Positions 9,776 through 64,000 of a DNA stretch of 64,000 bases are shown here, one piece after another; position 1 is the first letter of the stretch, and the number at the start of each line of letters is the position of its first letter. The notes under the pieces were generated by a model. It had not been told where the DNA came from. It did not search any database and was given only the letters and a program-made list of their open reading frames with translations. Source of the DNA: a phage; sequence record PZ445489.1; one strand, 5' to 3'. Position numbers and translations under genes: made by a program.

Positions 9776-10172
9776 TTTAAAAGATATTACTCTTGATACT
9801 CGTACTATTACTCTTTCCTACCCAGGTATGCCGAACTTTAAATTAGAACTTAACTATATGTCTCGTGCTACCTCTAAACGTGTTATTTCTTCTGCTAAAC
9901 GCGATGAATGGGTTAATGGTACTTTGATTCAGGTACAGGATGATGATAAGTTCATTGAAGCCTTCGTTGACGCAGCTATTAAAGGTTGGACCGGTTTGAC
10001 TGTAGGTGACGTTGAAAAACTGATGCTGATTGAAACAGATGCTGATCCTGCTACTGAAGTTCCTTTTAGCCGCGATAATGCTGTAATGCTCATGCAGAAC
10101 TCTGCTGCGTTTGATTCTTGGATCAACCAGACAGTGTTCCACTTAGACACTTTTCGTAGCCCAAAAGCGTAA
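9753..10172 (+). CDS. Putative tail assembly chaperone
   Basis: 139 aa ORF upstream of tape measure gene; typical chaperone position. Confidence 0.45.
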   Translation: MEKLKMINLKDITLDTRTITLSYPGMPNFKLELNYMSRATSKRVISSAKRDEWVNGTLIQVQDDDKFIEAFVDAAIKGWTGLTVGDVEKLMLIETDADPATEVPFSRDNAVMLMQNSAAFDSWINQTVFHLDTFRSPKA

Positions 10173-10233
10173 AGAACTCCTAGATGCTGTTGCTGATTTT
10201 GCAGATAAGTGTATTAAAAGCTCAGCATCTAAA

Positions 10234-40842: not shown

Positions 40843-40862
40843 CTGAAATTTTTCGGTAATTG

Positions 40863-41132
40863 CTACACATCTAGCTCAACAATCTCCCAATCATCTGCTA
40901 GAATTTCTTCTAAAGTTAACTCTACATCTTGCTTATGTGATCGTTTAAAATTTTCAAAAATACCTGTGGGCAATGGTGCAAAACTTTTGATAGTATCATT
41001 GTCAACATTAAACTCAAAAAGAAGCATAAAGTTTTTATCGTTTTTCCAGCAATCTCGCTGAAGATATTTTATGTCTCCAGCTTTAAGCAAATCTGTTAGC
41101 TTACTCACGACGTTTTCCTTTTTCTTTATCAA
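40863..41132 (-). CDS. Hypothetical protein
   Basis: 89 aa ORF overlapping end of upstream gene. Confidence 0.4.
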   Translation of the reverse strand: MIKKKENVVSKLTDLLKAGDIKYLQRDCWKNDKNFMLLFEFNVDNDTIKSFAPLPTGIFENFKRSHKQDVELTLEEILADDWEIVELDV

Positions 41133-41805
41133 GTTTCAGGGCAGCCTTAACAGCCTCATTAATCAACGTAATAATTTCTTCACGAGTCCACTTATACCCT
41201 AGAGATTTTACGTCAACCCCTAACTTTTCCAGATGTTTAACAGAAGCCAGCTCGTAATTCATATAATGAACGTTCTGTTGTTTGCTTTCTGATAGAAGCC
41301 ATACACGGTAACAACCAACAGGATTATCCATTGCTTTTTTGATTTCACCAATACACTGGTATCCAGGAACCCAAACAAGTTCTCCAACCTCAAATTCTTC
41401 TGCCACAGCATCGTCAGGAATAATTGGAGGATTCAATGGATCTACAATATCGTTCAAACGAAGTAGAGCACCATATCGTTCCAGAACAGATTTAACCATT
41501 GCTACAGAGCGGTAATTACGATCGGCAATTTCTTCAAAAGAATCACCAGATAGGTACTGTTCAATAACGTTGGCCAACTCAATACCTTCAATGAGTGTAC
41601 CACGTTTCTTTTTCTTCATTTCGGCAACTTGAATCTGGCGGTCTTGCCACTCTTCAATCATCCTTTCCATAGTCGGATTGGAAGATACGCCGAGCATTTC
41701 ACAAGCTGCTTTCTTGGTACCACCGTTCTCCAGATGCTCTATAACCTTTTTAAAGACTTCATCAGGGATTTCATGGATATGTTTCTTTCTGCGAGAACCA
41801 GCCAT
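41101..41805 (-). CDS. Early protein with putative HTH (first gene of N25-type transcript)
   Basis: 234 aa starting MAGSRRKKHIHEIPDEVFKK; expressed from the promoter at 41837..41865. Confidence 0.6.
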   Translation of the reverse strand: MAGSRRKKHIHEIPDEVFKKVIEHLENGGTKKAACEMLGVSSNPTMERMIEEWQDRQIQVAEMKKKKRGTLIEGIELANVIEQYLSGDSFEEIADRNYRSVAMVKSVLERYGALLRLNDIVDPLNPPIIPDDAVAEEFEVGELVWVPGYQCIGEIKKAMDNPVGCYRVWLLSESKQQNVHYMNYELASVKHLEKLGVDVKSLGYKWTREEIITLINEAVKAALKLDKEKGKRRE

Positions 41806-41836
41806 ATTTAAACTCCTCTCTCAAATTTATGAATCT

Positions 41837-41865
41837 ATTATACAGAAAAATTTTCCTGAAAGCAA
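41837..41865 (-). promoter_or_regulatory. Strong early promoter matching the T5 PN25 core
   Basis: - strand reads TTGCTTTCAGGAAAATTTTTCTGTATAATAGATTCATAAATTTGAGAGAGGAG, as I recall the N25 promoter used in expression vectors. Confidence 0.85.
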
Positions 41866-62893: not shown

Positions 62894-63063
62894 ATGAAAT
62901 CAGTTGTAATTATTGGTGTTAACACTCGCGGTATTCGTACTACGAAAATTGTTAAAACTTCTAACGTTGCTGAGATCACTACGAACCCTAAAAAGTTTGA
63001 TTTCGCCAAAGTCTCAGCAGTTATGACAGAACAATCTTTTAACCAAGCGTTAGGAATGAAATA
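62894..63063 (+). CDS. Hypothetical small protein (56 aa, below ORF-track cutoff)
   Basis: ATG with GAGGAAG RBS after promoter; stop overlaps next ATG. Confidence 0.3.
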
Positions 63064-63507
63064 ATGGAAGAGAATATTTTAGATGTTTTGCGTAGAGCTT
63101 TGCAGGATTCTAAGTTTAATGGTTCTGATAAAGAAGTCGCTAAAAGCTATCAGACCATAATCGGGGATCTTCAGCGTATTAATAAAGATTTCATCACTTC
63201 TGAACAATTTGTGTCTTATCTCAAAGCTCAACTAAAAAGCATTAACCAGATGAAAGCTAAACTTCATGGTCAAGATCTTGATAGTTATAGCTTGCAGTCC
63301 GCTCAGTATGAGTACATTCTAAATAAGTGGTTGCAGGAGTATCTGCCCCCTCAGTTATCTGATACTGAGATTCGTAAATACTTTGCAGAATTAGTTAAGC
63401 TAAACCCTGGAATTACAAAAGGTATGCTGATGAAAGCGATTAAGGAAGAATTTCCTGGGCGTTATGATGGTGGTACTGCTGCTCAGATTGCTGGTGAATT
63501 TAATTAA
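63064..63507 (+). CDS. GatB/YqeY-domain-like protein
   Basis: 147 aa; C-terminal GMLMKAIKEEFPGRYDGGTAAQIAGEF resembles YqeY-type segment. Confidence 0.45.
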   Translation: MEENILDVLRRALQDSKFNGSDKEVAKSYQTIIGDLQRINKDFITSEQFVSYLKAQLKSINQMKAKLHGQDLDSYSLQSAQYEYILNKWLQEYLPPQLSDTEIRKYFAELVKLNPGITKGMLMKAIKEEFPGRYDGGTAAQIAGEFN

Positions 63508-63515
63508 AAATTTAT

Positions 63516-63544
63516 TTGCTAAATGCTTATAAATTCTGTATAAT
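63516..63544 (+). promoter_or_regulatory. Early sigma70-type promoter driving an ORF-free region
   Basis: TTGCTA-17 nt-TATAAT with downstream TTCATAAATTAGAGAAC box; no ORF of at least 60 aa follows on + strand to window end. Confidence 0.6.
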
Positions 63545-64000
63545 ATATTCATAAATTAGAGAACAGCGAGCCGATTACGCTGAACTTGTCTTAATGTAAG
63601 ATGCGTCGAGCACTAAGATTCGTTGAATAGAGTCGGTAGGTTAGTTGTAAAACTAGTACACAGGGGGCGGCAATCCCGGTTAGTGGCTAGAACGTGTAAA
63701 ATGAGGCGTCTGAAACCTCTCCCCTAAACTCTTCTCTAATTTATAAATAGTGGGGTGTGGAAATCACTTATGTAGTAACACTGCCGTCCTAGTATAATTG
63801 GTATTATCAAGCCGTAACTGGTGGAAGATATAGATTCGAATCCTACGGTCGGTAAGAACTGGATAACTGATGCTTTTAACGTAAAAGCTTCCGAGGTTAG
63901 TTGCGCACTGCCTAAACCACGCGGTAGTTGGTTCCAGGCTAACCAACCAGTCTGCTGAATAGTTTTATTACGATTTAACTATGTCCAGGCTAAAGAAGAA

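Follow-up and report, generated by a model that had tools for sequence, protein, structure and literature searches.

Two described kinds of RNA come closest to the element studied here. In the RefSeq record of phage T5 (NC_005859), a misc_RNA feature, rnaX/T5s08, covers 719 nucleotides (nt; 40848-41566) and is described as "RNAX, stable RNA with unknown functions"; the annotated order is promoter P 16-17 (41554-41628), rnaX and then, at the very next base, a transfer RNA (tRNA) gene, tRNA-Arg. GOLLD is a large phage RNA with a conserved 3' part and a variable 5' part, in whose linker tRNAs are sometimes found (PMC12286853, PMC5737381). Here we analyzed positions 63545-64000, the end of a 64,000-nt stretch of phage DNA (record PZ445489.1; the whole stretch is called the window), where a promoter is followed by a region free of credible open reading frames (ORFs). 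We conclude that this ORF-free stretch, far from being a spacer, is the promoter-proximal 450 nt of a long non-coding RNA gene, the ortholog of T5 RNAX in the form carried by Escherichia phage SP15, and we give a probability of about 0.8 to this explanation as a whole, inferred steps included. As an annotation the gene is not new, being T5 RNAX. Our literature searches found no published description of the structure or function of RNAX; its comparative structure, the nature of the "pseudo-tRNA" that it carries and the breadth of its conservation appear to be undescribed.

Over positions 63000-64000 the window is 99.9% identical to SP15, a T5-like phage of the genus Tequintavirus (Demerecviridae), and 441 phage records match this interval at megablast level. 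In SP15 the locus (L001; L001 coordinate + 53999 = window coordinate) continues past the end of the window. The T5 sequence, read directly, is a homolog of the window region: BLAST blocks against T5 RNAX show 91-98% identity, and a global alignment gives 92% identity with one 87-nt and one 17-nt gap. The position agrees too, as in both phages the RNA lies downstream of a YqeY-like gene, with promoter P 16-17 or its homolog before it and tRNA-Arg(UCU) after it. Past the end of the window the RNA has another ~356 nt, its last base (L001 10357) directly preceding tRNA-Arg, and it is ~807 nt long in the window/SP15 form and 719 nt long in T5. Two differences separate the forms: SP15 and the window have ~87 extra nt in the first domain, of which T5 keeps the closing hairpin only, and the window copy has an additional G>A change in the T stem of its tRNA-like element.

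The ORF-free stretch is bordered upstream by the stop codon of a 147-amino-acid (aa) YqeY-like gene (window 63064-63507) and downstream by a 315-aa SPFH/Band-7 gene (L001 10467). An earlier reading of the letters alone (the sequence-only reading) had guessed that an RNA and tRNA gene cluster of the T5 type starts here. This is what the locus holds: the RNAX ortholog comes first, tRNA-Arg(UCU) lies 357 nt past the window end (L001 10358-10432), and ~15 more tRNA genes follow it in SP15. Existing records describe the region in several ways. A second T5 record (AY587007) marks only a pseudo-tRNA, at the equivalent of window 63783-63854; other genomes name this element tRNA-OTHER, tRNA-Pseudo, tRNA-Sec, tRNA-Ser, tRNA-Pro or tRNA-Val, and some carry annotated hypothetical proteins over the region.

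The promoter and the predicted parts of the RNA within the window, in base pairs (bp) where helices are described, are the following.

63516-63544, + strand: T5-type early sigma-70 promoter, with the -35 element TTGCTA (63516-63521), a 17-bp spacer and the -10 element TATAAT (63539-63544).
63551-63744, + strand: domain 1 (module A), from the predicted +1 A63551; the annotated 5' end of T5 RNAX corresponds to A63558.
63551-63563 with 63732-63744, + strand: helix P1, in which the predicted transcript's opening 13 nt, AUAAAUUAGAGAA, are paired with UUCUCUAAUUUAU.
63564-63568 with 63578-63582, + strand: P2, an invariant hairpin (CAGCG/CGCUG).
63570-63576 with 63631-63637, + strand: possible pseudoknot between the P2 hairpin loop and a downstream strand.
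63584-63623, + strand: P3, a variable hairpin whose position is taken by other hairpins in other phages.
63638-63642 with 63727-63731, + strand: helix P4 (GRGUU/AACUC).
63703-63706 with 63716-63719, + strand: helix P5.
63750-63920, + strand: domain 2, closed by GUGG (63750-63753) with CCAC (63917-63920) and holding the platform, the tRNA-like domain and hairpins H1 and H2.
63763-63871, + strand: platform helix (5' strand 63763-63776, 3' strand 63858-63871), three 4-bp segments with 1x1 mismatches between them.
63783-63854, + strand: tRNA-like domain with acceptor, D and T arms, an anticodon arm of 3-4 bp with a 6-nt loop (GUAACU), and no encoded CCA.
63872-63888, + strand: hairpin H1 (GCUUUUA-ACG-UAAAAGC).
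63895-63912, + strand: hairpin H2 (GGUUAGU...ACUGCC), followed by the conserved linker UAAACCACG.
63921-63991, + strand: lineage-specific variable insert, with hairpins predicted by thermodynamics only at 63927-63933/63941-63947 and 63960-63965/63977-63982.
63992-64000, + strand: start of the next conserved domain (AAAGAAGAA); the RNA continues past the window.

The L-shaped tRNA-like domain is borne at the tip of the 12-bp platform helix, which pairs both flanks of the cloverleaf. We counted covariation in 24 distinct orthologs from Escherichia, Salmonella, Klebsiella, Pantoea and Serratia phages, on a structure that we specified ourselves. Across platform and cloverleaf 91.4% of the cells were paired, and 18/31 pairs showed compensatory changes, against 8.3 +/- 1.9 in shuffled alignments (0/500 as high) and 2-6 in slid controls. 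The platform alone had 99% of its cells paired and 8/12 pairs changed on both sides; in Serratia phage Slocum one of its segments is fully swapped, from UUAU/AUAA to CGCU/AGCG. Within the cloverleaf, compensatory changes affected four pairs of the acceptor arm, two of the D arm and two of the T arm, the T stem occurring as GUAGG/CCUAC, GCAGG/CCUGC and GUGGG/CCCAC, and the short anticodon stem covaries as well. The arms of a tRNA are thus kept by base pairing across the orthologs, with two mismatches in the T stem of the window copy.

Detection programs see this element poorly. On the Rfam tRNA model (RF00005), whose gathering score is 29 bits, the window copy scores 22.3 bits, SP15 28.3 and the orthologs 26.6-46. 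ARAGORN, which along with Rfam had been proposed as a check by the sequence-only reading, returned 0 genes in the window; on the orthologs it called Val(CAC), Ser(AGA), SeC(TCA), Ser(ACT) or nothing. The predictors fail because of the 3-4 bp anticodon stem, the 6-nt loop and, in the window copy, the two T-stem mismatches. Rfam searches of the whole window at gathering score, and of the region and four divergent loci at a permissive E-value, gave tRNA matches only. Transfer-messenger RNA (tmRNA) was considered and rejected, as neither ARAGORN nor Rfam detected one.

The element shares with tRNAs its acceptor, D and T arms, the GG of the D-loop and a UUCGAAU T-loop, with orthologs that reach 39-46 bits on the Rfam model. 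It differs from them in an anticodon arm that is either short, in place of the 5-bp stem and 7-nt loop of a tRNA, or 31 nt long (in Sealy, IME260 and Kenya-K44), in an unconserved anticodon with inconsistent predicted identities, in the absence of an encoded CCA and in its paired flanks. Two relatives (L024 and L026) retain the platform and have the whole cloverleaf swapped for an unrelated hairpin. The same platform helix bears, in Slocum, an element (L061 1531-1606) that reaches 46 bits on the tRNA model and is predicted as tRNA-Val(CAC); ancestrally, the large RNA may have contained a genuine tRNA. Because the element is kept by compensatory changes, it does not behave as a neutral pseudogene, and the compared sequences lead us to conclude that it is a tRNA-derived structural domain, neither a decoder nor a neutral pseudogene, with selection acting on its shape.

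The window copy has changes of its own. A perfect 10-bp palindrome (GATTCGAATC) lies at 63833-63842 and corresponds to the T-loop with flanking T-stem bases; the sequence-only reading had seen this palindrome rightly and had placed it 5 nt too early, at about 63828-63837. Since ~0.44 perfect 10-bp palindromes are expected by chance in 456 nt, the palindrome alone is not significant. It is perfect here because of a G>A change at 63834 that is specific to the window: SP15 has GGTTCGAATCC at this site, A63834 is the only difference from SP15 in 63000-64000, and the 23 other distinct orthologs have G at this position, which is G53 in tRNA numbering. A second variant base, A63830 (consensus G), is common to the window and SP15 only. 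Together, A63830 and A63834 create two A.C mismatches in the T stem and make the window copy the most degenerate among the orthologs. The minimum free energy fold of the consensus sequence is a cloverleaf and that of the window copy is not; these two mismatches explain why the sequence-only reading could not fold a canonical cloverleaf, as indeed the window copy does not.

The rest of domain 2 is also supported by comparison. Its closing helix is invariant in the other lineages and becomes UAGG/CCUA in Slocum, two adjacent compensatory pairs. In H1, two pairs each occur in three Watson-Crick types, with a covariation score of 0.343 against 0.064 in shuffles (0/500 as high). The H2 stem, compared by eye, is paired across lineages as GGCAGU/ACUGCC, GCUAGG/CCUAGC, GCUG/CAGC and GUUG/CAAC. 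The 63921-63991 stretch is swapped for other sequence in Epseptimavirus, Klebsiella and Pantoea phages.

Beyond the window, a domain of 180 nt at the 3' side (L001 10068-10248) holds 31 pairs predicted by RNAalifold, 11 of them compensatory, with a second GUGG/CCAC closing helix, invariant linkers and stems that are fully swapped between phages, for example ACAGG/CCUGU and CUAGGAAG/CUUCCUAG. At L001 ~10160-10180, ~160 nt past the window end, a self-complementary loop, GUCAUGAC, is invariant in every lineage, Klebsiella and Pantoea phages included, and is a candidate kissing-loop or self-association site. Between this domain and the variable insert, the conserved domain from 63992 to L001 ~10070 has one strand rich in purines (AAAGAAGAAC) and two rich in U (GUUUUUUC and GUUUUUC), set around a CUCC-N5-GGAG hairpin, as well as a helix GGAUAG/CUAUCC with matched 1-nt deletions in T5 (GGUAG/CUACC); it could be a pseudoknot or a triplex.

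Domain 1 presents a different picture. Over 16 distinct sequences, pairing in its core helices reaches 97.7%, compared with 36-47% in slid controls. P1 has independent support, because short forms of the RNA keep a compensatory closing hairpin: AGAGA/UCUCU in T5, AGAUG/CAUCU in AKFV33 and AGUGA/UCACU in Kenya-K44. The interior of domain 1 is absent from T5 and AKFV33. At the P3 position four different sequences occur across the phages, three of them with one architecture and covarying inner stems. Rutana, L022 and mar003J3 have an HNH endonuclease gene at the domain-1 position; in some Epseptimaviruses (L029 ~1240-1740, L022, L062 1016-1498) a homing-endonuclease gene of the HNH (AP2-type) kind lies exactly at the site of SP15 domain 1. 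In Klebsiella phages, L024, L027 and L063, domain 1 and the platform are instead set apart by additional structured modules, one or two in number and each of ~170 nt. Taken as a whole, the RNA strings closed domains together through invariant single-stranded linkers, with variable hairpins at the periphery.

We also asked what the region could encode. The sequence-only reading had reported no + strand ORF up to the window end, and the only two that exist between promoter and window end, a TTG ORF at 63623-63727 (34 aa) and a GTG ORF at 63821-63958 (45 aa), are short, mechanical, non-ATG frames, neither of them credible. Compared with Salmonella phage Stitch (67% identity), the mismatches in the RNA region are spread evenly over the three codon positions (83/89/91, p=0.82), and gap lengths of 11, 8, 16, 1, 2 and others are not multiples of three; the pattern is equally flat against closer relatives. 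In contrast, the adjacent YqeY-like coding sequence, used as a control, gives 10/3/32 (p=2e-7) with no gaps, and against the distant relatives L027 and AAS21 its every gap is a multiple of three. The longest stop-free stretch of the RNA region, 80 codons, matches the shuffle expectation of 78 +/- 17.

The 45-aa ORF belongs to phrog_19105 (E=1e-35) and is annotated as AKFV33 orf078. It is open in the near-identical Tequintavirus clade only. Elsewhere CCT, CCG or GCG stands in place of the start, a loss seen in rutana, Kpn_B01, Sealy and K44, or the frame is broken by stops at codons 13-21 (L027, Stitch, Trudi and Klebsiella phages), which fall in the 3' strand of the platform helix. The ORF overlaps the T-arm, the platform, H1 and H2. 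Its annotation is probably a propagated mis-annotation, and the region is not translated. Coding is thereby excluded, so that the near-silence of the gene predictors goes together with no short coding gene.

The promoter at 63516-63544 with its downstream box, as the sequence-only reading had described it, has its elements at exactly these positions and matches the T5 early promoter family, which is defined by TTGCTW, TATAAT after a spacer of 17-18 bp and, further downstream, a CATAAATT box. By chance, 0.02 matches to the family's 42-nt pattern (CATAAATT box included) would be expected in the window; there are 12, this site among them with 0 mismatches. A consensus promoter scan scores it 10/12. 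It is homologous to T5 promoter P 16-17, and the homologous promoter is annotated both in AKFV33 and in T5 NC_005859. We place the predicted +1 at A63551 by likeness to T5 early promoters such as PN25. Another member of the family lies at window 41824-41865 on the - strand; its core is presumably identical to PN25, the strong T5 promoter of expression vectors.

Our model suggests that host RNA polymerase would start at A63551. The sole intrinsic terminator on the + strand lies after the SPFH gene, with none before L001 11438, and because no terminator follows the promoter, transcripts would run on across tRNA-Arg(UCU) and the SPFH/Band-7 gene. The 3' end of the RNA would then arise when RNase P cuts at the 5' end of tRNA-Arg; the T5 RNAX annotation stops exactly one base ahead of tRNA-Arg. 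The product would act as a folded RNA, neither message nor decoder.

Judged from the genome sequences, the RNA is conserved across Demerecviridae. A distant-mode search found 570 phage records matching the region, and covarying hairpins with invariant linkers occur in Escherichia, Salmonella, Klebsiella, Pantoea and Serratia phages. In Klebsiella phages identity is 80-86% over the promoter, domains 1-2 and beyond, where the adjacent protein gene falls to 54-66% at the nucleotide level. The size of RNAX ranges from ~0.7 kb in T5 and 0.8 kb in SP15 to >1.3 kb in Klebsiella phages. A signature pattern of the 3' domain had confirmed homologs among IMG/VR viral contigs on T5-like contigs only, the rest being chance matches, and gave chance matches only in 185,579 bacterial and archaeal genomes. 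A metagenome scan with the pattern CAGCGNGCNGANTACGCTG was too unspecific; among the matches listed, L117 was the sole true homolog.

Several observations weigh against an RNAX-type structured RNA. Folding energies do not exceed chance, with z = -1.25 for 63550-63752 and +0.09 for 63550-64000, so the evidence for structure must come from the comparison of phages; of the hairpins seen by the sequence-only reading, several are backed by covariation, while their thermodynamic stability is at chance level. The domain-1 core shows 1 compensatory pair only, its helices being near-invariant, and is too conserved for covariation to prove its fold. The RNA is highly mosaic, with whole modules missing or swapped between phages, something one would not expect of a single obligatory fold. 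The entire region lies within the deletion of the viable T5 st0 mutant, and is therefore non-essential and dispensable in the laboratory. The words "stable RNA" in T5 come from a GenBank note, and we found neither a paper behind that note nor transcript data.

This mosaicism leads to a different view of the transcript, as a precursor that is cut into several small stable RNAs such as domain 1, the tRNA-like domain and the 3' domain. Each domain has its own closing helix, domains are gained, lost and swapped independently, and the products would match the other T5 stable RNAs of 100-170 nt (RNAI, RNAIII, RNAIV, rna2 and RNA2H), several of which the T5 records list in the tRNA region; RNA2H directly follows a promoter and joins its 5' and 3' ends in a terminal helix. 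The 46-bit Slocum element is tRNA-like enough for excision to be possible. However, T5 RefSeq has a single 719-nt RNAX and no pieces, the platform pairs both flanks of the tRNA-like domain, unlike in a free pre-tRNA substrate, and the invariant interdomain linkers suggest tertiary contacts, so we regard such processing as unlikely. We also considered a cis-acting leader that serves only to process, stabilise or regulate tRNA-Arg and the SPFH/Band-7 messenger RNA, which would fit the place of the RNA between the promoter and these genes with no intervening terminator. Yet 700-1300 nt with many covarying helices go far beyond the needs of known leaders, and T5 annotates a stable RNA. In Epseptimavirus, Klebsiella and Pantoea phages the RNA is separated from tRNA-Arg by inserted ORFs; the linkage is therefore not conserved, unlike the RNA. 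We find this improbable, and a riboswitch or leader was rejected.

A functionless relic, made of a decaying pseudo-tRNA, junk and homing-endonuclease scars in a dispensable region, would agree with the sub-threshold tRNA score, the pseudo-tRNA annotation, the loss of the region in viable T5 st0, the HNH endonuclease genes inserted in some relatives and the two extra T-stem mismatches of the window copy. It is nevertheless very hard to reconcile with compensatory substitutions that keep four arms and a flanking helix across genera, with non-coding blocks that are invariant from Escherichia to Pantoea phages, and with an RNA that diverges less than the neighbouring protein gene, unlike a neutral relic. 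Least credible to us is that the region encodes small proteins, for example the 45-aa ORF. The PHROG match and the hypothetical proteins annotated in several genomes speak for such genes, but the GTG start lies inside the T-arm, starts are lost or stops gained in distant relatives, and codon periodicity is absent while indels break the frame; small-protein genes were rejected on these grounds.

With the RNAX ortholog as the preferred reading, we tentatively suggest, while holding it to be less than an even chance, that RNAX, with its place at the head of the tRNA island, its tRNA or tRNA mimic on a platform and its GUGG/CCAC-closed domains, forms a class of its own among giant ornate phage RNAs, functionally analogous to GOLLD and ROOL and possibly self-assembling through the GUCAUGAC loop. 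As to what such an RNA does, it might be a scaffold or decoy for a factor that recognises the tRNA elbow, or self-assemble like the large phage RNAs of tRNA islands; this we consider doubtful.

Two protein genes lie directly upstream of the promoter: that of a 56-aa DUF7616 protein (window 62894-63064) and the YqeY-like gene. The latter's product matches Pfam YqeY with 25.4 bits, just under the Pfam threshold, and is labelled "tRNA amidotransferase" in the annotation. YqeY/GatB tail domains bind tRNA, and it is conceivable that the YqeY-like protein is a partner of the tRNA-like domain. Klebsiella phages lack a YqeY-like gene at this position, and a search with the protein for further loci returned close relatives only.

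As genome annotation the locus is ordinary, being the promoter, RNAX and tRNA-Arg expected of a T5-like phage. RNAX is, at the same time, among the largest non-ribosomal structured RNAs of a classical coliphage, is present in hundreds of Escherichia, Salmonella, Klebsiella, Pantoea and Serratia phage genomes, and is routinely mis-annotated as pseudo-tRNA, tRNA-Sec, tRNA-Ser, tRNA-Pro or hypothetical proteins. Rfam 15 holds no family for it and gives tRNA matches only in the SP15, Stitch, Klebsiella, Pantoea and Serratia phage loci. Its comparative structure, the nature of its "pseudo-tRNA" and the breadth of its conservation give good grounds for considering RNAX as a new family among large phage RNAs.

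How does RNAX compare with the RNAs already described? A tRNA-shaped module within a larger non-coding RNA is also found in the YrlA tRNA mimics and in the tRNA-like domain of tmRNA. Here, in contrast, a complete cloverleaf stands at a helix tip and is not formed from two RNA ends; neither Rfam nor ARAGORN gave a YrlA or tmRNA match, and the annotation of the 19-kb SP15 stretch includes no Ro/Rsr gene. The other stable RNAs of T5 (RNAI, RNAIII, RNAIV, rna2, RNA1 and RNA2H; AY692264) resemble RNAX in their place in the tRNA region, in their 5'/3' closing helices and, in some, in tRNA-like T arms, but they are 100-170 nt long where RNAX has ~800 nt. BLAST of these six RNAs against the region found nothing significant beyond a generic T-loop.

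GOLLD and ROOL come nearest. Like them, RNAX is phage-encoded, hundreds of nt long and multi-domain, has pseudoknot-like long-range pairs and lies at a tRNA island, the context of GOLLD and ROOL, RNAs whose own role is a long-standing question. As described for GOLLD, a phage RNA of tRNA islands with a tRNA sometimes in its variable region (PMC12286853), a tRNA or tRNA-like element is embedded here, and invariance is greatest in the 3' domain. RNAX differs in that it comes from phages of Enterobacterales; the sole hint toward a GOLLD-like homo-oligomeric nanocage is the invariant GUCAUGAC loop of the 3' domain. The GOLLD model of Rfam had no match at E<=10 or E<=5 in the SP15, Klebsiella, Pantoea, Stitch and Slocum loci or at gathering score in the window, and the ROOL model had none with permissive filters (E<=10) or at gathering score in the window. 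The likeness is one of context and architecture, neither membership nor homology. Should RNAX prove to be an analogue of GOLLD and ROOL, its occurrence in T5 and E. coli, for which viable deletion mutants of the region already exist, would make the function of such RNAs genetically testable.

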